DNA of 64,000 nucleotides from a virus. Position 1 is the stretch's first letter. Each line of letters begins with the position of its first letter. The DNA lies in the IMG/VR virus record IMGVR_UViG_3300042446_001440, positions 16,170 through 80,169 of that record, one strand, 5' to 3'. Shown here piece by piece: positions 3,511 to 48,782 of this stretch. The notes under the pieces are model-generated. The model saw only the letters and a program-made list of their open reading frames with translations. It made no database searches and was not told the DNA's origin. The translations under genes were made by a program, and so were the position numbers.

Positions 3511-4347
3511 ATGGACTTAAGTCTCATCAAACAGAAGTTGACCGCTTCTCAAAACAAAGGTCAAAAGAAAACATACGAAAAGATCGACTACTCAAAGATC
3601 TTCTGGAAACCAAAACCAGGTAAACATCAAGTTCGTATTCTACCTTCAAAATTCAACAAAGCCGATCCATTCCGCGAAGTGTATTTCCACTATGGTTTCT
3701 CTAAAGGACCTATCTTGGCATTAACTAACTGGGATGAAAAAGATCCAATCGCTGAATTCGCAAAATCACTACGCAAATCATCAGACAAAGAAGATTGGCA
3801 GTTAGCATCAAAAATCAGTCCTAAATTACGTTATTTCGTTCCTGTAGTAGTACGTGGCGAAGAAGCAGCAGGTGCTCGTTTATGGGAATTTGGTAAATTG
3901 ATCTACGATCAATTACTAGGTATTGCTAATGACGAAGATTATGGCGATTTTACAGACATTACAGATGGTCGTGACTTTACAGTTGAAGCTGTTGAAGAAG
4001 CAGTAATGGGTAGAAAAGGTATTAAATGCACACTTCGCGTTAAACCTAAAACAACTACAATTTCAGATGACGCCGCATTCGTAACTAATGTATTAGAAAA
4101 TCAACCCGATATTCTTAGCATTAACAAACGTTACACATTTGATGAATTGAAAGATTTATTAGATAAGTGGTTAAATCCTGAAGACGAAGAAACAACTGAA
4201 ACTCCAATCGCTTCTAAAACAGAAGATGAAGAGGAAGAAGATGATTTCTTGAAGGAAATGAACAAGCCGGTAGAACAAACCTACAAACTTGATACCAACG
4301 CAGCAAAAACGTCCAACGCTGACAAATTCGACGATTTATTTAACTAG
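3511..4347 (+). CDS. T4 gp32-like single-stranded DNA-binding protein
   Basis: FWKPKPG..VRILP, LWEFGK.IY and DITDGRDF motifs; acidic tail ending DDLFN; directly upstream of RecA. Confidence 0.8.
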   Translation: MDLSLIKQKLTASQNKGQKKTYEKIDYSKIFWKPKPGKHQVRILPSKFNKADPFREVYFHYGFSKGPILALTNWDEKDPIAEFAKSLRKSSDKEDWQLASKISPKLRYFVPVVVRGEEAAGARLWEFGKLIYDQLLGIANDEDYGDFTDITDGRDFTVEAVEEAVMGRKGIKCTLRVKPKTTTISDDAAFVTNVLENQPDILSINKRYTFDELKDLLDKWLNPEDEETTETPIASKTEDEEEEDDFLKEMNKPVEQTYKLDTNAAKTSNADKFDDLFN

Positions 4348-8186: not shown

Positions 8187-9136
8187 TGATCACTGAACCA
8201 CGTTTATTCTACAAACCATTTGAATATCAAGAAGCATTTAATTTCTATAAAGACCAACATAGAGTACATTGGTTAGCTGATGAAGTTCCATTAGCATCTG
8301 ATCTTAATGATTGGAAACAAAAACTAACCGAATCTGAAAAGAACTTAATCGGTAATATCTTAAAATCATTCGCTCAAACAGAAGTACACGTAAACGATTA
8401 CTGGTCTACTAAAGTATCATTATGGTTTCCAAAACCAGAGATACAAGCAATGGCTCGTGTATTTGCTGACTTTGAAAGTATACATGCTGAAGCATATGCC
8501 CGTTTAAATGAAGAATTAGGGTTAGATGATTTTGAAGCATTTATGGAAGACGAATCATCAAAAGCAAAAATTGACCGTTTACTAGAAGTACCAGGAGATA
8601 ATATAGCAGAAAAAGCACTATCATTAGCTATCTTCTCAGCGTTTACTGAAGGTGTAAATTTATTCTCTTCATTCGCTATATTAATGTCTTTCCAATTAAG
8701 AAACTTAATGAAAGGAACAGGACAAATAGTAGAGTGGAGTGTTAGAGATGAGTCATTACATTCAAGAGCAGGATGTTGGTTATTTAATAAGTTATTAGAA
8801 GAACAACCTGAACTTAATACATCTGAAATGAGAGATAATGTTATTGAAGCATGTAACATATCAGTTAAATTAGAATTTGATTTCATTGATAAAGCATTTG
8901 AGATGGGTGCTGTTGAAGGATTAAATGTAGATCAATTAAAGAACTTCATCAAAGCTAGAGCAAACGAAAAAATGATTGAATTAGGTTATAATGCAATATA
9001 TAATGACATTGATCCAAATCTATTAAAACAAATGGATTGGTTCGGTCACTTAACAAGTGGTAAAACACATCAAGACTTCTTCGCGGGTCGCGTAACAAAT
9101 TATTCTAAATCAGCCGCTGATTGGTCTGACCTTTAA
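8186..9136 (+). CDS. nrdB: Ribonucleotide reductase class I beta subunit
   Basis: ESIHAEAY, TEGVNLFSSF, RDESLH and DFF motifs. Confidence 0.95.
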   Translation: MITEPRLFYKPFEYQEAFNFYKDQHRVHWLADEVPLASDLNDWKQKLTESEKNLIGNILKSFAQTEVHVNDYWSTKVSLWFPKPEIQAMARVFADFESIHAEAYARLNEELGLDDFEAFMEDESSKAKIDRLLEVPGDNIAEKALSLAIFSAFTEGVNLFSSFAILMSFQLRNLMKGTGQIVEWSVRDESLHSRAGCWLFNKLLEEQPELNTSEMRDNVIEACNISVKLEFDFIDKAFEMGAVEGLNVDQLKNFIKARANEKMIELGYNAIYNDIDPNLLKQMDWFGHLTSGKTHQDFFAGRVTNYSKSAADWSDL

Positions 9137-9187
9137 AAAGTATCCAATGGGGACAATATTCTTATATATTTATTGCAAATAACATAT

Positions 9188-9751
9188 ATGAAAAAATGCA
9201 ATAAATGTTTAAAGGAATATCCATTAGATGGTTTTAGTAAATTTAAAAGAAATAAAGATGGATATATGTCATACTGCAAAGTATGCCACCGTGTTCAAGT
9301 TAAAGCTAATAGGAGTAAATATAAAGAATACGATAAAGAATACGCTAAACTTCAATGGCCTAAAAATAAAGATAGAATTAGAGAAGAATACAGGGAGTAT
9401 TTTAAAATATATAAACGTGAACGTAGAAAAGATCCTATATTTAGATTAAAAGAAAATATGCGTAATTACTTCTATCAATCTTTCATAAAGAATAGAAATG
9501 CTAAGCGTGATTCCATTTTAAGCTATATAGGATGTTCATTCGATGATTTAAAAATATACTTAGAAAATAGTTTCGATGAAAATATGTCTTGGGAAAACTA
9601 TGGTTCATATTGGGAAATAGACCATAAAGATCCTATATTTAACTTCTCCACATCGGAAGAAGATTTATATAAATGTTGGAATTATAGTAATTTACAACCC
9701 CTAACAATATCAGAAAATAGAATAAAACATAATAAAATACAAACAAAATGA
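9188..9751 (+). mobile_element. Free-standing HNH-type homing endonuclease between nrdB and nrdA
   Basis: N-terminal CxxC..CxxC; MSWENYG..WEIDHKDP and NYSNLQPL..EN..K motifs. ATG 9188 preferred over TTG 9173. Confidence 0.75.
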
Positions 9752-11472
9752 GTATAAATACGGATATTAGTAAGTGGGTTAAAGGAAAAGATTATCCTGA
9801 GTTTATGGATGAAATAGCAATAAGTATGATTTCAAAAGGATATTTACTTCCAGACGAAAACGTATTTGACGCCTATAAGAGAGTAAGTAAAGCAGCATCA
9901 CGCAGATTAAGACGTAAAGATCTACAAGCATACTTTAACGAAGCAATAATAAAAAATTGGCTATGCTTAGCATCACCAGTACTATCAAATCTAGGTACTG
10001 AACGTGGAATGCCAATTTCATGTTTTGGAATTGACGTTGGTGATTCTATTGAAGGAATTGCTGATGCAAATTCAGAATTAATGAGATTATCATCTCAAGG
10101 TGGTGGAGTGGGAATTGGAGTATCTCGCATTAGAGGTAGAGGTAAACATATTAGAGATAATGGCACCTCGGAAGGTGTAGTTCCATGGTGTAAAATATAT
10201 GACTCAACTATCCTAGCAACTAATCAAGGTTCAGTTAGAAGAGGAGCGGCATCAGTTAATTTATCTATTAACCATCCTGATATTGAAGAATTCCTAGGAA
10301 TCCGTAGACCAAAAGGTGATGTTAATCGTCAATGTTTAAACTTACACCAATGTGTAGTAATTGATGATACATTCATGGATAAATTAGAAAATAAAGACGA
10401 ACGCTCAATGCGTTTATGGGGTGAAATACTAAAAACACGTCTTGAAACAGGTGAACCTTATATCATGTTTGAAGATAACGTTAATAAAGCTAATCCTGAA
10501 GGATATAAGAAACTAAATCTACACGTTTCAATGACAAACATATGTAGTGAGATTTCACTATACACAGATGAATTACATTCATTCATATGTTGCTTATCAT
10601 CATTGAATCTAGCACGTTGGGATGAATGGAAAGATTATAAGTTTGAAAATGGAATGACACTACCAGAACTAACATGCTGGTTTCTAGAAGGTGTATTACA
10701 AGAATTTATTGATAGAGCTAAGAACATTAAATTTATGGAAAACACAGTTCGCTCAGCATCTAAAGGTAGAGCAATTGGAATTGGCGTTTTAGGATGGCAC
10801 ACATTACTACAATCAAAGAATTTACCATTCGCAGGAATACAAGCATCATCATTAACAAGAATCATTTCTGAGTTCATTGAGACAGAAGCATTAAAAGCAT
10901 CTAGAGATCAAGCTGAAATGTATGGTGAACCAGAATGGTGTAGAGGTACTGGATTGAGACATTCGCATCATTTAGCAATTGCTCCAACAGTATCAAACGC
11001 TCATATTTCAGGTGGTGTATCTCCATCAATTGAACCTATTCCTGCGAACGTATACAATCTTAAAACCGCTAAAGGAGTATTCATCAAACGAAATAAAATA
11101 CTAGAAACACTATTAGAGAGTAAGGGATATAACATTGATAGCGTTTGGGATCAAATCTTAAAAGATCAAGGATCAGTAATCAACGTTCCTAGCTATATTC
11201 TAACAGACGAAGAAAAATCAGTATTCTTAACGTTTAAGGAAATTAATCAATTAGAAATAGTAAAACAAAATGCTATTAGACAAAAATACGTTGATCAAGC
11301 TATATCATTAAATCTATGCTTTGATCCTAATGATACACCAAAGTGGATATCTCAGGTACACAAAGAAGCACATAAAGCAGGAATTAAAACATTATACTAT
11401 CTACGTACTGAATCAGTATTGAGAGGAGATAACTTACAAAGACTATCAGAATGCATATCTTGTGAAGGGTAG
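9748..11472 (+). CDS. nrdA: Ribonucleotide reductase class I alpha subunit, no N-terminal ATP cone
   Basis: ISCF, GGGVG, TNICSEI, AIAPT, KTLYY and C-terminal CISCEG. Confidence 0.95.
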   Translation: MSINTDISKWVKGKDYPEFMDEIAISMISKGYLLPDENVFDAYKRVSKAASRRLRRKDLQAYFNEAIIKNWLCLASPVLSNLGTERGMPISCFGIDVGDSIEGIADANSELMRLSSQGGGVGIGVSRIRGRGKHIRDNGTSEGVVPWCKIYDSTILATNQGSVRRGAASVNLSINHPDIEEFLGIRRPKGDVNRQCLNLHQCVVIDDTFMDKLENKDERSMRLWGEILKTRLETGEPYIMFEDNVNKANPEGYKKLNLHVSMTNICSEISLYTDELHSFICCLSSLNLARWDEWKDYKFENGMTLPELTCWFLEGVLQEFIDRAKNIKFMENTVRSASKGRAIGIGVLGWHTLLQSKNLPFAGIQASSLTRIISEFIETEALKASRDQAEMYGEPEWCRGTGLRHSHHLAIAPTVSNAHISGGVSPSIEPIPANVYNLKTAKGVFIKRNKILETLLESKGYNIDSVWDQILKDQGSVINVPSYILTDEEKSVFLTFKEINQLEIVKQNAIRQKYVDQAISLNLCFDPNDTPKWISQVHKEAHKAGIKTLYYLRTESVLRGDNLQRLSECISCEG

Positions 11473-11514
11473 CGGGCCTTTAGTATCTTCATATATTTAT
11501 TGGAAACAATAATT

Positions 11515-12150
11515 ATGATAGGAATATACAAAATTACAAATCCAAGAGGTGAAGTTTATGTGGGATTGTCAAAGAATATAGAATTGCGATGGCAATCCCA
11601 TAAAAATTTCCAATTCCATAAAAACAATAAATTAAAAGAATCTTTACTACGAGATAATATTGAACTTCATATATTTGAAGTAATTGAAGAAGTAGATATA
11701 TCGGATTTAAGACAATATGAAGCTAATGCTTTACTTCGAAAACGAGAAAGGTATTGGATTAATAAATTAAATTCATTCAATATAGGACTAAATGAAAACG
11801 GTGGTGGTAGTGGATGCGGTTCCCATACAGACGAATCTAAACAAAAGATTTCTCAATCTTTAAAGGGTAAACCAAAACCATTAGACTTCGGAGCTAAAAG
11901 AAAAAAATGGCAACATACGGACGAGTGGAAGGAAAAAGTAAAATCAGCTCCTAGATGCCCTGTACTAATGCTTAAAGATAATATAATAGTTCAAGAATTT
12001 CCAAATCAACAATCCGCAGCTGATCATTTAGGAGTAAGAAAACAAGCAATATGGAATATGTTAAACGGATTTAAAAATAGAAATGGTGTTCCTATCATCC
12101 AAGTAAGAGGATACACATTTAAATATAAAGAAAAAAATAGTATAAAATGA
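11515..12150 (+). mobile_element. GIY-YIG homing endonuclease with NUMOD3-like and HTH DNA-binding repeats
   Basis: MIGIYKITN..VYVGLS..R, RERYWI and HTDESKQKIS motifs; inserted right after nrdA. Confidence 0.85.
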
Positions 12151-15451: not shown

Positions 15452-16294
15452 ATGAAAAAACAAGCAGTATTAAGTCTATCTGGTGGAATGGATTCATCCA
15501 CACTATTACTTCATCTATTAGCTGAAGGTTATCAGGTAACAGCATTAGGATTCGATTACGGTCAAAAACACAAAGTAGAATTAGAAAGAGCAAAATCATT
15601 AGTAAAGTATATTAATGACGTTATGTTTGAAAGTAAACGAGACAATTTCGTTAAACATCAAATCATCAAATTAGACGGATTACCTTCACTATTAAATTCA
15701 GCACTAGTAGAAGGTGGAAAAGATGTTCCTGAAGGTCACTACGAACAAGACAACATGAAAGAAACAGTTGTTCCTAATCGTAATAAAATATTCAGTTCAT
15801 TAATTCAAGCAGTAGCATTATCAATTGCAACTACAGGAGATAAGAAAGAAGTAAAAATCGCATTAGGAATTCACGCTGGTGATCATGCTATTTATCCTGA
15901 CTGCAGACAAGAATTTAGAGATGCAGATATGGAAGCATTTAAATTAGGTAACTGGGATAGTGAATTAGTATCATTCTATACTCCATATCTAGATACTGAT
16001 AAATTCGGTATATTACAAGATGGATTAGCAGCATGTAACAAATTAGGGCTTAACTTTGATGAAGTATATAAGCGCACAAATACATCTTATAAACCAATTA
16101 AATTGTCAAAGGATATTTGGTTATCAGATTATAAATCAGCAGCATCAGTAGAACGTGTAGAAGCATTTATTAAATTAGGCAGACCAGATCCTGTACAATA
16201 TGGGGAAGTGGTAGAAGGTAGTGGAATAAGAATAGTAAAATGGGAAGAAGTAAGAGCATCAGTAAAAGAAGTATTAGATGCACACAATTCGTAA
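15452..16294 (+). CDS. queC: 7-cyano-7-deazaguanine (preQ0) synthase
   Basis: SGGMDS PP-loop, FDYGQKH..E, VPNRN and YPDCR. Confidence 0.92.
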   Translation: MKKQAVLSLSGGMDSSTLLLHLLAEGYQVTALGFDYGQKHKVELERAKSLVKYINDVMFESKRDNFVKHQIIKLDGLPSLLNSALVEGGKDVPEGHYEQDNMKETVVPNRNKIFSSLIQAVALSIATTGDKKEVKIALGIHAGDHAIYPDCRQEFRDADMEAFKLGNWDSELVSFYTPYLDTDKFGILQDGLAACNKLGLNFDEVYKRTNTSYKPIKLSKDIWLSDYKSAASVERVEAFIKLGRPDPVQYGEVVEGSGIRIVKWEEVRASVKEVLDAHNS

Positions 16295-46407: not shown

Positions 46408-46509
46408 AGTCAGGTGGCGGAATGGTTGTAGACGCTAGTTGAATGTATTGATTACTTCTGACGCATTCGATGAACAAATAATTGCTAGGTTCAAATCCTG
46501 CCCTGACTA
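46408..46509 (+). ncRNA. tRNA-like RNA with non-canonical anticodon arm
   Basis: Acceptor AGTCAGG/CCTGACT+A, D arm GCG..CGC and T loop GGTTCAAATCC. The central arm has a 16-nt loop instead of an anticodon loop. Confidence 0.65.
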
Positions 46510-46514
46510 CAAAA

Positions 46515-46630
46515 TCGTTCGAACGTGGAACGACGAAGACGGCCGTGGCATACCGTAAGATCTGCTCGCTTAGTGGCTCCGTATCGTAGGACGGCACAGT
46601 TAGCAACTCTGGTGGTATTCTAAAAGTTGC
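46515..46630 (+). ncRNA. Candidate structured ncRNA A (tRNA-array spacer)
   Basis: GC-rich; stems TCGTTC/GAACGA, GCCGT/ACGGC and GCAACT/AGTTGC. Confidence 0.4.
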
Positions 46631-46634
46631 AAAC

Positions 46635-46707
46635 TCCAGAATAGCTCAGTTGGTAGAGCAGCTGATTTGTAATCAGCAGGTCGCAAGTTCGACTCTTGTT
46701 TCTGGAT
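46635..46707 (+). tRNA. tRNA-Thr(TGT)
   Basis: Acceptor TCCAGAA/TTCTGGA; anticodon arm GCTGA-TTTGTAA-TCAGC; T loop GTTCGACTC. Confidence 0.92.
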
Positions 46708-46710
46708 CAA

Positions 46711-46807
46711 GGATGAGAGAATACAAAGTAGCAGCACCCGTCATCATGTGTAACTCGTGGTGCCAACTACCAGTAACTTTGTTTGGTTGGCCAACCGAAC
46801 CTCATCT
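46711..46807 (+). ncRNA. Candidate structured ncRNA B
   Basis: Nested stems GGATGAG/CTCATCT, ACAAAGT/ACTTTGT and GCACC/GGTGC, plus hairpin TTGGTTG/CAACCGA. Confidence 0.5.
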
Positions 46808-46812
46808 TTATT

Positions 46813-46899
46813 GGAAGAGTAGCCAAGCGGTTGACGGCACCTGACTTGAAATCAGACATACGGGAAACTGTATCGTGGGTTCGAATCCTACCTCTTCCG
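46813..46899 (+). tRNA. tRNA-Ser(TGA)
   Basis: Acceptor GGAAGAG/CTCTTCC+G; anticodon loop CTTGAAA; long variable arm; GGTTCGAATCC. Confidence 0.92.
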
Positions 46900-46904
46900 C
46901 AGCT

Positions 46905-46975
46905 TGGGTTATGGTGTAATGGCAACACTACAGATTTTGATTCTGTCGTTTTAGGTTCGAGTCCTGGTAACCCAA
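46905..46975 (+). tRNA. tRNA-Gln(TTG)
   Basis: Acceptor TGGGTTA/TAACCCA; ACAGA-TTTTGAT-TCTGT; GGTTCGAGTCC. Confidence 0.92.
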
Positions 46976-46976
46976 C

Positions 46977-47109
46977 AAAAAGAACTAGCAAACAAATGAC
47001 ACGCACGGCAGCCTGGAATGTGTGCACACTGAACAGGCAATGCGAACGAAGAGGATGGGATACCTCACTGTGCGTAGGTTAGATTCAACGCCCGTCGCTA
47101 GTTCTTTTT
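46977..47109 (+). ncRNA. Candidate structured ncRNA C (multi-branch, possible pseudoknot)
   Basis: Perfect 13-bp closing stem; inner stems ACGCACGG/CTGTGCGT, GCCTG/CAGGC and GAGG/CCTC. Confidence 0.6.
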
Positions 47110-47115
47110 TTACAT

Positions 47116-47275
47116 TGTAGGATGGTGAAATGCTCTAGAGCTTGGAATACACAGCGCCCCGTCTAGGCGCCGCGGATCACGAAATAGATAAATGATAATG
47201 GGTTGACCACACGCTTGCAAGCACAAATGTCATTTATTGAATCGCCGTATGGAGGTTCAAATCCTTCTCCTACAG
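47116..47275 (+). ncRNA. 160-nt tRNA-Asp(GTC)-like RNA with D-loop hairpin and ~80-nt variable-arm insertion
   Basis: Acceptor TGTAGGA/TCCTACA+G; anticodon arm GCGCC-CCGTCTA-GGCGC; T arm GGAGG-TTCAAAT-CCTTC. Confidence 0.7.
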
Positions 47276-47280
47276 CTAAA

Positions 47281-47422
47281 GAGGATAAAATGTGTAGTAA
47301 CCTCAAGGAAGCTAGCTCCTACTACACTCTTTAAGTGTTACCCAAAGGGTAAACGCACTGGTATGAGACTTGTTCTCTCAAACTCGATACCTAAAGTTGA
47401 GCTGTCAATTGAAAGATTGACT
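47281..47422 (+). ncRNA. Candidate structured ncRNA D
   Basis: Stems GTGTAGTA/TACTACAC, TTACCC/GGGTAA, GGTAT/ATACC and GTCAATT-GAAA-GATTGAC. Confidence 0.45.
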
Positions 47423-47426
47423 TAAT

Positions 47427-47512
47427 GCCCCGGTGGTGGAACTGGTAGACACGCAGGACTTAAAATCCTGTTCGCTGTAAGGCGAGTGACGGTTCGATTC
47501 CGTTCTAGGGCA
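47427..47512 (+). tRNA. tRNA-Leu(TAA)
   Basis: CAGGA-CTTAAAA-TCCTG; Leu-type D arm GGTGGAACTGGTAGACAC; variable arm; GGTTCGATTCC. Confidence 0.9.
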
Positions 47513-47525
47513 CATAATTATAATC

Positions 47526-47843
47526 ATGGCATGTCATTGTTTACATCTGAAAAACGCAAGCGAATTCTACACGTTACTTAAACAACGTGACCCCGATTTA
47601 ATCAAGAAAATGGTTAAATGTGTAATGAGCGCATATAAGCGAAATAAAGCAGATATTGATATATTTGATATCACATTCAAAGACATGAGCGAATTGACAT
47701 TTAATATTGAAAGATCACAGTACAGCGAATTACTCAGCAATTGTCTTAAAGACATGATTGAAATAGAAGAGTACGAATTATGTGCTGAGATTAAGAAAAT
47801 AATAGATAAAAAATCAAAACACGGGGATGGCATAGGCATTTGA
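47526..47843 (+). CDS. Protein with C-terminal UVR-like motif, paralogue of 44308..44625
   Basis: EIEEYELCAEIKKII; last 21 nt overlap the tmRNA 5' end. Confidence 0.6.
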   Translation: MACHCLHLKNASEFYTLLKQRDPDLIKKMVKCVMSAYKRNKADIDIFDITFKDMSELTFNIERSQYSELLSNCLKDMIEIEEYELCAEIKKIIDKKSKHGDGIGI

Positions 47844-48292
47844 TCCGTATGAGATGGGTATGTATACACGCAGAGACATGGCATTCATTCTCTTTAATCA
47901 TGATGCAAACAATTTAAACGACAACAAAATCGCTCGTCAAGAAATCGGTGCTTCTATTATCAACATGGCTTTTGCTAGAGTTGCTATGGCTGCCTAAGAT
48001 CTTCGGATCTTTCTTTCCCTGGCAACTTGGGTGAAACAGTAAGTTGCAAAAAATTCCACTTTGGGGAGTAGGGTGTTCATCTACCCGACGCCCACCAGGT
48101 TGGGGATGTACGACCATAACACGTCCGTGGAGCTGATGAAAATGTTTTTCTAGTTATGTCAAAACTAGATGGTGGACTGTTACCAAATCGGTAGCCCTAA
48201 CATACGGTGCAGTAGCAATACAGTACTAAGCGTGTGAGAAGCTGTACATATTTGTACTTACGGAGACGAGGGTTCGAACCCCTCCATCTCCA
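47823..48292 (+). ncRNA. ssrA: tmRNA (transfer-messenger RNA)
   Basis: GGGGATG/CATCTCC+A acceptor with G3:U; T arm GAGGGTTCGAACCCCTC; tag ORF 47920-47997 (A)DNKIARQEIGASIINMAFARVAMAA*. Confidence 0.9.
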
Positions 48293-48335
48293 CTCATCTC
48301 CCCCTGTTCTCATATATTTATTGGAAACAATAATT

Positions 48336-48782
48336 ATGAAAACAGGGACTAAGGAGTATTATGCCAATTATTATGAGCAAAACAAAGAAGAACATAATTT
48401 TAAGTCTATAGAGTGGCAATCTCAAAATAAAGATAAGGCATTAGAATCCGTTAAAAAATGGAAAGGAAAGAATGCAGATAAAGTAAGAGAATGGGATAGA
48501 TTACGGAAACAACAACAAAATAAAGAACGTAGACAATTTGTAAATGAATATAAATTAACATGTTCTTGTAAAAAATGTGGCGATATTAGACCATATGTCT
48601 TAGATTTTCACCACTTGGACCCTTCAGCCAAATCGTTTGACTTAGGTAATGCTTCCAAATATAATATATCTAAATTAAAATTAGAATTAGAAAAATGTAT
48701 TACATTATGCAGAAATTGCCATAGTGAATTTCATTATTTTGAAAAAAAACAAAATATAATTATTACGGAGTATGTAAAATAA
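48336..48782 (+). mobile_element. HNH homing endonuclease immediately downstream of tmRNA
   Basis: CKKCG..VLDFHHLDP..K..LEKCITLCRNCHSEFH; ATG 48336 follows the shared endonuclease leader. Confidence 0.8.

Follow-up and report, generated by a model that had tools for sequence, protein, structure and literature searches.

Phage transfer RNA (tRNA) arrays contain, besides ordinary tRNA genes, a large and strongly constrained RNA family that is missed by every standard finder. The member described here lies at positions 47116-47275 (+) of a 64-kilobase (kb) stretch of DNA (the window), which belongs to the 80-kb IMG/VR phage contig IMGVR_UViG_3300042446_001440, estimated to be 49% complete, with 32% guanine plus cytosine (GC) and all genes on the + strand. 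This giant-armed RNA joins a tRNA-Asp-like body to a huge branched variable arm, and it is very probably a functional, discrete RNA of approximately 157-160 nucleotides (nt) in an uncatalogued family of lake and other uncultured phages. The element is not a decaying pseudogene and very probably not an interrupted tRNA gene; a pseudogene lacking conserved homologues, which the initial annotation of this DNA had considered, is excluded by the large, conserved, and covarying family. The best overall explanation, to which we assign a probability of roughly 0.4, is a functional RNA that would be charged with aspartate, would not decode, and would serve as a carrier for GatCAB, on which aspartate is converted to asparagine outside the ribosome.

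Structure and distribution of the giant-armed RNA family

The window copy, all of whose parts lie on the + strand, is organized as a cloverleaf. In the acceptor stem, the 5′ strand TGTAGGA (47116-47122) pairs with the 3′ strand TCCTACA (47268-47274), which ends in A72 and is followed by the discriminator G73 (47275), and six of the seven pairs are compensatory among homologues. The D arm (47125-47152) has a Leu-type stem of three base pairs (bp), GTG/CAC (47125-47127 with 47150-47152), which covaries from UA to CG, and its loop contains the palindromic hairpin GCTCTAGAGC (47132-47141), an insert found in nearly all members, together with the conserved G18 G19 (47144-47145). The anticodon-like arm (47154-47170) consists of the stem GCGCC/GGCGC, with four of five pairs compensatory, and the 7-nt loop CCGTCTA (47159-47165), which comprises C33 (47160), G34 U35 C36 (47161-47163), U37 (47164), and A38 (47165). 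The T arm GGAGG-TTCAAAT-CCTTC (47251-47267) has a canonical T loop, and four of its five pairs are likewise compensatory. The intact acceptor stem with a G discriminator, the GTC anticodon, the normal T arm, the Leu-type D stem with its loop hairpin, and the unusual C33 and U37 had all been described in the initial annotation and are present as described. The base after G73 is C and no CCA is encoded; the bona fide tRNAs of the array have this same N73-CA trailer.

The giant variable arm (47172-47248) forms a branched domain of approximately 77 nt. It begins with the basal helix GCGG/CCGT (47172-47175 with 47245-47248), in which three of four pairs change on both sides, and continues through a 4-nt bulge, the helix CGA/TCG (47180-47182 with 47242-47244; three of three pairs changing on both sides), the internal loop AATA/GAA, and the 11-bp helix GATAAATGATA/TGTCATTTATT (47187-47197 with 47228-47238; eight of 11). 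The apex carries the hairpin TGG-GTTGA-CCA (47199-47209), nearly invariant as GGGTTGACC, and, single-stranded on its 3′ side, the tip GCTTGCAAGC (47213-47222), a perfect palindrome of 10 nt. This region of about 80 nt had earlier been read as an 11-bp stem capped by two hairpins; the stem is borne out, but GCTTGCAAGC, taken for the second cap hairpin, is more aptly described as a self-complementary element. The family consensus has the same plan, i.e., a basal helix GCNG/CNGC, a bulge, a 3-bp helix, an internal loop RAYA/GAA, an 11-bp helix, and a nearly invariant apex hairpin UGG-GUUGA-CCA (GGGUUGACC) followed by a single-stranded stretch. The centroid fold is a cloverleaf with a large arm and the layout described above. 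Since the fold energy of the single sequence is unremarkable (z = -1.05), the support for this structure comes from the comparison of homologues and not from thermodynamics.

The family was found by comparative searches. ARAGORN with default settings makes no call at the element, the models of Rfam 15, RF00005 included, do not match it at the gathering score or at E ≤ 10 in a search over 46500-48500, and an exact 24-nt pattern from the 3′ half retrieves nothing from viral contigs. With flanking proteins as anchors, 19 related phage loci were obtained, nine of which have a full-length homologue, and an RNAalifold consensus of eight sequences contained 41 pairs, of which 19 were compensatory. 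A covariance model, run with cmsearch on loci that a loosely defined motif had picked out of the IMG/VR viral contigs, yielded approximately 50 full-length matches at 79-167 bits, among which the window copy scored 152 bits and was delimited exactly at 47116-47275; its weak matches are class II tRNAs. Across 47 distinct homologues, 98.3% of cells pair and 30 of the 41 pairs change on both sides, a level reached by none of 500 shuffles, and slid controls pair at 40-50%. All four arms of the cloverleaf are thereby backed by covariation: the 7-bp acceptor stem, the D arm with G18 G19, the 5-bp anticodon stem with its 7-nt loop, and the T arm with a TTCRA loop. The apex hairpin gives no covariation because it is invariant in almost all members.

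A stricter motif scan added at least 119 further metagenome loci and a single contig among 185,579 prokaryote species genomes, namely a metagenome-assembled genome (MAG) labelled Acidobacteriota, whereas blastn of the element against 50,697 GenBank phage records gave no match. Furthermore, a profile search of viral and lake-metagenome contigs returned 178 matches, corresponding to 136 distinct full-length members of 147-175 nt with a mode of 157 nt, and the RNA array of the window is found again in at least 18 DNA metagenomes from lake water or fresh water. A genome-wide search based on the RNA model, in which 150 of 473 candidates received a score, overlooked the known copy (L139) on the MAG G016, and negatives by that route are weak. 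No published description was found in the literature searched or in Rfam 15; the candidate RNA DNAVirus_1850, with 27 copies, one of which overlaps a tRNA-Asp call (PMC10690425), may overlap the family. Annotation pipelines should model the family, lest phage tRNA arrays be read as containing spacers or pseudogenes.

Matches of an arm-only profile never occur outside this tRNA-like scaffold. Two short-arm variants, L008 (114 nt) and L138b (147 nt), are the only members without the apex hairpin, and both keep an Asp-like body and loop; in L084 the tip is replaced by a 12-bp hairpin. Some contigs carry two family copies (L138 at 3961-4271, L212 at 9079-11583), and in L138 a full copy stands in tandem with a short-arm copy devoid of the GGGUUGACC hairpin.

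Identity marks, decoding, and self-complementary sites

The anticodon GUC (G34 U35 C36) is invariant in 132 of 132 members and the discriminator G73 is present in 130 of 132, so the Asp identity marks are, judged by this constancy, under selection. A C invariably follows the discriminator, and only seven members go on to encode CCA. At position 38, 112 of 132 members have C and the other 20, including the window copy, have A. At the acceptor end, U1-A72 occurs in 47 of 47 sequences of the covariation set and T stands at position 1 in 136 of 136, while pairs 2-7 drift freely; G2-C71 is found in 43/47. The T loop and G18 G19 are canonical throughout the family. The D loop has a 10-nt insert 5′ of G18 G19, G19 is separated from the stem by four nucleotides (CATA or CAGA), and the numbering of positions 20 and 20a is ambiguous. 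Neither the invariant U1-A72 pair nor the self-complementary nature of the two inserts had been noticed in the initial annotation.

The loop surrounding the anticodon is a different matter. Position 33 is C in 111 members, U in 14, and A in seven, and position 37 is U in 125 and A in seven; because A33 always accompanies A37, the two positions co-vary. The U33 and purine 37 expected of an elongator are thus replaced by C33 and U37 in the window copy, and across the family they occur in 14/132 and 7/132, respectively. The T stem also deviates, in that pair 51-63 is A-U or U-A in 126 of 128 members as against G-C in 14 of 15 canonical phage tRNA-Asp genes. When the published increments for T-stem pairs 49-65, 50-64, and 51-63 are added (PMC3239215, Table 2), the predicted ΔΔG for elongation factor EF-Tu has a median of +0.7 kcal/mol in the family (range +0.2 to +2.1), with the window copy the weakest at +2.1, and of -1.1 kcal/mol in canonical phage tRNA-Asp (range -1.1 to -0.2), which is the tightest class. 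The two distributions do not overlap, and the family T stem is predicted to be approximately 1.8 kcal/mol weaker for EF-Tu. A tight T stem is expected in canonical tRNA-Asp because aspartate is a weakly binding amino acid. The C33/U37 loop and the weak T stem argue against decoding; furthermore, weak EF-Tu binders that stand beside a normal second gene copy have been proposed as candidates for non-translational roles (PMC3239215).

Such normal copies exist. In two complete genomes, G004 (238 kb) and G005 (321 kb), the giant-armed RNA accompanies a full tRNA set that covers all 20 amino acids and has a canonical Asp(GTC) among its members, and the giant-armed RNA of G005 lies approximately 20 kb away from the main tRNA array; G007 and G009/L131 also hold a canonical tRNA-Asp together with it. 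Conversely, the complete genomes G002 and G003 (174-179 kb) possess only three to five tRNAs and a transfer-messenger RNA (tmRNA), and keep the giant-armed RNA. The giant-armed RNA is not the tRNA-Asp of the phage, because complete genomes encode a canonical one as well and tRNA-poor genomes retain the RNA. The canonical tRNA-Asp genes of the same loci have G1-C72 in 12 of 15 cases, the loop CUGUCAC, and a short variable loop. The statement in the initial annotation that the element is unlikely to decode is therefore upheld by positions 33 and 37, by the weak T stem predicted for EF-Tu, and by the co-existing canonical tRNA-Asp.

Moderate enlargement of the D loop, together with a variable arm of 15-25 nt and a normal anticodon loop, is seen in some phage tRNA-Asn(GTT) genes and in one tRNA-Asp(GTC) gene, and one 73-nt Asp(GTC) gene carries U37, as in the giant-armed family.

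The two inserts share a further property. In 96% of 84 distinct segments, as against 9% of shuffles, the arm tip contains a perfect palindrome of 8-12 nt, and 14 different tip palindromes are found, including AGCCGGCU, GCUUGCAAGC, GCUAGCUAGC, GCUGCAGC, GCUCGAGC, and GUGCGCAC, so that palindromy is kept and the sequence varies. The computed energies of these tips are 0 to -2.6 kcal/mol for the monomer hairpin and -15 to -22 kcal/mol for the homoduplex, and for the tip of the window copy approximately -1.6 and -19 kcal/mol. A simple tetraloop hairpin fails to explain them because the central four bases are self-complementary in every type. The D-loop insert is a perfect palindrome of at least 8 nt in 36 of 73 distinct inserts versus 4% of shuffles, and the remaining inserts are ordinary hairpins. 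In the 79 members in which both sites are palindromic, the two are never identical and their cross-pairing extends to at most 4 nt. Two orthogonal homotypic interfaces of this kind would permit dimers, chains, or rings, and make the RNA a compact candidate for natural RNA-RNA assembly.

A putative Asp-to-Asn carrier and its alternatives

The identity rules of bacterial tRNA-Asp and tRNA-Asn provide the frame for the proposed role. The strong bacterial Asp determinants are G73, G34, U35, C36, and C38; bacterial tRNA-Asp has strictly conserved G1-C72 and G2-C71 pairs; and Asp-tRNA-Asn owes its amidation to U1-A72, whereas G1-C72 and U20a block that of Asp-tRNA-Asp (PMC9976931). Recognition of U1-A72 by GatCAB has also been described elsewhere, together with 18 genera, including Bacteroidetes, that have asparaginyl-tRNA synthetase (AsnRS), glutaminyl-tRNA synthetase (GlnRS), and GatCAB and are devoid of asparagine synthetase (PMC4206432). 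The strong determinants G73, G34, U35, and C36 are all present in the window copy. In its sequence marks the family is a chimera, with the marks for aspartyl-tRNA synthetase (AspRS) on a GatCAB-type acceptor end, because the Asp determinants are combined with U1-A72.

We infer processing, charging, amidation, dimerization, and a benefit to the phage as follows. RNase P, together with the enzymes that trim the 3′ end and add CCA, would presumably cut the RNA from the array transcript, as happens to its neighbour tRNAs, since it has a complete tRNA body (an acceptor stem of 7 bp, a D stem of 3 bp with G18 G19, and a canonical T arm) and shares the N73-C trailer of these neighbours. It is likely that the host AspRS charges the RNA with aspartate, because the strong determinants (G73, G34, U35, C36, and usually C38) are kept, and that C33 or A33 with a pyrimidine at 37, the weak T stem, and the bulky arms keep it from elongation. 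The invariant U1-A72 would then make the Asp-charged RNA a GatCAB substrate, and asparagine would be formed from aspartate on a carrier that does not decode. Such a carrier would need barring from the ribosome because an Asn-charged GUC RNA would miscode Asp codons, and the signature of such barring is seen. The phage copy might act as an auxiliary metabolic RNA that raises the asparagine supply for an AT-rich, Asn-rich proteome; the proteome of the window phage contains 6.4% Asn at 32% GC. Phage tRNA-Asn genes have G1-C72 in 19 of 24 cases, and most are for that reason not expected to be GatCAB substrates. The enzymes of the host would be used, because no GatB, class IIb synthetase, or AsnB was found in the five near-complete or complete phage genomes searched. 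Furthermore, the two self-complementary sites would probably pair two or more copies, which would suit a two-fold symmetric AspRS dimer or transamidosome. This off-ribosome Asp-to-Asn conversion is put forward tentatively. The fullest version, in which phages of lake Bacteroidota carry a self-dimerizing, non-decoding tRNA-Asp/tRNA-Asn chimera that is charged by AspRS, amidated by GatCAB, never enters the ribosome, and boosts a host pathway during infection, is possible but rather doubtful.

Several points weigh against the proposed carrier. U1-A72 replaces G1-C72, which is said to help position the 3′ end in Escherichia coli AspRS (PMC9976931), and the replacement may lower charging. GatCAB also reads the size of the D loop and the antideterminant U20a (PMC9976931), and the D loop of the family is enlarged by the 10-nt insert. 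The window copy has A38 and not C38, GatB was not found in the Bacteroides thetaiotaomicron control, and U1-A72 is not rare among the tRNAs of these AT-rich phages (Gln; some Met, Ile, and Tyr). Moreover, class II synthetases such as AspRS approach the tRNA from the side of the variable loop, and an 80-nt arm could clash. The route by which asparagine would leave the carrier and the need for the conserved GGGUUGACC hairpin are left unexplained.

If the Asp-to-Asn carrier is real, it explains why GatCAB is retained in some Bacteroidota despite the presence of AsnRS and GlnRS, it adds an RNA to the viral auxiliary metabolic genes as the first RNA-only one of a virus, and it represents the first cofactor RNA of amino-acid biosynthesis that is not itself a translational tRNA. 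Even as a chargeable, non-decoding tRNA derivative, the family would widen the small set of tRNAs acting outside translation and would show how a tRNA can be disarmed for decoding, at positions 33 and 37, in the T stem, and by bulky arms, with its synthetase identity kept. The initial annotation had proposed just such a chargeable RNA, acting off the ribosome as a decoy, a scaffold, or an amino-acid donor; this is supported in outline, as the Asp marks are kept and decoding is unlikely.

One alternative is that the RNA is an aspartyl carrier or sensor for another off-ribosome process, in which the AspRS-charged RNA or its charging state is used by a host or phage factor that recognizes the arm. 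The AspRS determinants and the non-decoding signature fit this equally, the invariant arm loops (GGGUUGACC and the internal loop RAYA/GAA) look like a binding site, weak EF-Tu binders beside a normal copy are listed as non-translational candidates (PMC3239215), and the RNA would resemble the non-proteinogenic tRNA-Gly that feeds cell-wall synthesis. However, no enzyme that uses aminoacyl-tRNA is found among the open reading frames (ORFs) of the window or the conserved neighbours, and the invariant U1-A72 is not explained; we regard this alternative as unlikely. Also unlikely is a tRNA-shaped scaffold with cargo, in which the arm and the self-pairing sites are the functional parts and the tRNA body serves only for RNase P and 3′ processing and for stability. 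The same phage group does have a tRNA-like shell in several copies with quite different interiors, the two orthogonal palindromic sites would permit dimers or chains, and homo-oligomeric RNAs such as ROOL and GOLLD, which often lie near phage tRNAs, are known (PMC12286853). A scaffold, however, has no need for GUC, G73, U1-A72, and U37 to stay constant in at least 130 divergent members while the stems drift, and the short-arm variants L008 and L138b lose the arm apex and yet retain the Asp-like body and loop.

A decoy or sponge, i.e., a tRNA-Asp mimic that absorbs a host factor such as AspRS itself, an enzyme of tRNA modification, or a nuclease or toxin with which host defence attacks tRNA-Asp, is improbable. 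The kept anticodon and discriminator with altered flanking loop positions 33 and 37 would suit it, as would the presence of the RNA even in phages with minimal tRNA sets, and phage tRNAs with altered anticodon loops have been reported to escape host anticodon nucleases. By contrast, a decoy needs neither the elaborate conserved 80-nt arm nor the self-complementary tips, sequestering AspRS would also harm the translation of the phage, neither U1-A72 nor the T stem weak for EF-Tu is accounted for, and we know of no Asp-specific anticodon nuclease.

Still more improbable is a specialized decoding tRNA-Asp, for instance a nuclease-resistant or condition-specific isoacceptor whose arms the ribosome accepts as it does the long arms of class II tRNAs. 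The invariant GUC and the minority clade with U33 (14/132) speak for it, as do some large arrays of the U33 clade that lack a canonical Asp in the sequenced part (G006, G008). They are outweighed by the pyrimidine at position 37 in 125 of 132 members, by the C or A at position 33 in 118 of 132, by a T stem some 1.8 kcal/mol weaker for EF-Tu although aspartate needs a tight body, and by the canonical tRNA-Asp alongside in G004, G005, G007, and G009/L131; in addition, a branched 80-nt arm with a D-loop hairpin would hardly pass the A, P, and E sites.

Removal of the arm and the D-loop hairpin as intervening sequences of an interrupted tRNA-Asp gene, which is very improbable, finds a hint in the Pro-TGG call with an 84-nt intron made at the locus by relaxed ARAGORN with introns allowed, but this call has poor D and anticodon stems and ignores the 5-bp stem proven by covariation, the structure and loop sequence of the arm are conserved like those of a functional domain, there is no group I core and no Rfam intron match, loss of the arm would still leave C33, U37, U1-A72, and the weak T stem, and no contig in four RNA libraries (depth approximately 2) joins across the arm. 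The Pro-TGG call was rejected because it breaks the covariation-proven stem. The contigs from these libraries cover 47181-47315 and 47300-47424, and the sole joint, ending at 47116, corresponds to a relative with a different array order.

A link to 7-deazaguanine or queuosine was likewise considered and rejected as a general explanation. The phage encodes a preQ0 pathway, comprising GTP cyclohydrolase I (FolE), QueC (15452-16294), and a PTPS/QueD-like protein, with the ORFs within the first 36 kb, and FolE, QueC, and QueD are also found in the three closest relatives. However, two larger genomes, both complete and both with the RNA, lack QueC, no tRNA-guanine transglycosylase (TGT) or DpdA is present in the 80 kb of the phage contig, and 14 members have U33. 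The earlier suggestion that C33 serves to evade TGT hence fails as a property of the family, given U33 in 14/132 and the lack of preQ0 genes in the two complete RNA-bearing genomes.

Array context and relation to known systems

The element lies in an RNA array in the order tRNA-like shell (46408-46509), tRNA-Thr, tRNA-Ser, tRNA-Gln, giant-armed RNA (47116-47275, +), tRNA-Leu(TAA), and tmRNA (47823-48295), the members of which are separated by spacers of 100-150 nt. The spacers (in the window, 46510-46634 and 46977-47115) are themselves conserved RNAs, as nhmmer matches spacer A in 18 other loci, spacer C in 23, spacer B in four, and spacer D in 11; none of the inter-tRNA spacers has an Rfam match. 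The shell at 46408-46509 represents a second tRNA-like family, which is also found in L277, L278, L279, L281, and L282 (records G012 and G015). It has the acceptor stem AGUCAGG/CCUGACU, normal D and T arms, and the form AGUCAGG...CCUGACUA, with the anticodon and variable region swapped for very different interiors and a total length of 92-190 nt; it is multicopy in relatives, with at least six copies in the complete 172-kb genome G012, and resembles a tRNA scaffold of natural origin whose cargo can be exchanged.

The phage-encoded tmRNA (Rfam, 61.9 bits) is unusually long, at 473 nt; a tmRNA lies near the giant-armed RNA in approximately 20 of 48 loci, and ARAGORN predicts conserved long tags, e.g., DEMSTMTFDDLMAFVGADYAVAA. 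A gene for a protein of approximately 76 amino acids with two transmembrane segments (motif PGLE...APVLAVVD.TLTWIR) is located immediately 5′ of the RNA in L006-L010 and in 90 of 144 distinct loci, and in most family loci it ends 0-5 nt ahead of the first base of the RNA; the window lacks it at this place. The neighbour-protein search revealed only synteny of the lineage, with this 76-amino-acid protein, DUF4494, an HNH-like protein, and a protein of approximately 105 amino acids as neighbours, and a scan for sigma-70 promoters and terminators gave nothing beyond chance. The host is probably a member of Bacteroidota, judging only from the DUF4494 gene adjoining the array, which has a cellular homologue in Rhabdobacter (Rhabdobacter roseus). 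In phages of the U33 type (L260-L264, L105, and L113; records G006 and G007, all large fragments), tRNAs with a CTA anticodon occur among 20-33 tRNAs and are labelled 'Pyl' by ARAGORN; they are candidate amber suppressors and a hint of stop-codon recoding.

Among known systems, the canonical bacterial or phage tRNA-Asp(GUC) shares with the giant-armed RNA the cloverleaf, G73, G34 U35 C36, usually C38, G2-C71, G10, the position in tRNA arrays, and the 3′ trailer. The giant-armed RNA differs from it in U1-A72 in place of G1-C72, in C33 or A33 with U37 in place of U33 and A37, in an A-U or U-A pair 51-63 in place of G-C, in a 3-bp D stem with a hairpin inserted in the loop, in a variable region of approximately 80 nt in place of 4-5 nt, and in being missed by ARAGORN and RF00005. 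The stable RNA species 1 and 2 of phage T4 (rnaC and rnaD) are discrete RNAs of approximately 120-140 nt that lie in a phage tRNA cluster and are released by tRNA processing. They are not known to carry identity sets for aminoacyl-tRNA synthetases.

The class II tRNAs (Leu, Ser, and Tyr) and the allo-tRNAs (PMC5389517) resemble the giant-armed RNA in the 3-bp D stem and in a helical variable arm that projects from between the anticodon arm and the T arm; however, known arms measure at most about 20 nt and are unbranched, whereas the giant-armed RNA has a branched domain of approximately 77 nt with conserved loops and the anticodon of a class I-type amino acid. ROOL, GOLLD, and OLE (PMC12286853) are similar as structured, uncharacterised RNAs that are often phage-borne near tRNA genes and form intermolecular RNA-RNA contacts. 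They are 500-800 nt long, are not tRNA-shaped, and are in Rfam, in contrast to the giant-armed RNA, which has no match in Rfam 15 and for which self-assembly is predicted from the palindromes only.

The non-proteinogenic tRNA-Gly of Staphylococcus (PMC7826273, PMC3239215) is likewise an additional gene copy that accompanies a normal isoacceptor and has a T stem weak for EF-Tu, and its role as an amino-acid donor outside translation, for the cell wall, is established, with the Fem enzymes as its consumers. That tRNA has a normal size and anticodon loop, whereas the consumer of the giant-armed RNA is only inferred.

The tRNA-Asn of the indirect pathway, which employs a non-discriminating AspRS and the GatCAB transamidosome (PMC9976931; PMC4206432), corresponds to the proposed carrier in G73 and U1-A72, in charging with aspartate and conversion on the RNA (both predicted for the giant-armed RNA), and in a T stem that leans toward weak EF-Tu binding, which keeps the Asp form from translation. 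The giant-armed RNA has instead GUC and not GUU, C33 and U37, the 80-nt arm, the D-loop hairpin, and the self-complementary tips; it is encoded by phages, and its charging and amidation are predicted. Because its anticodon is GUC and not GUU, charging would need no more than an ordinary discriminating AspRS, and the product would have to stay out of decoding altogether.

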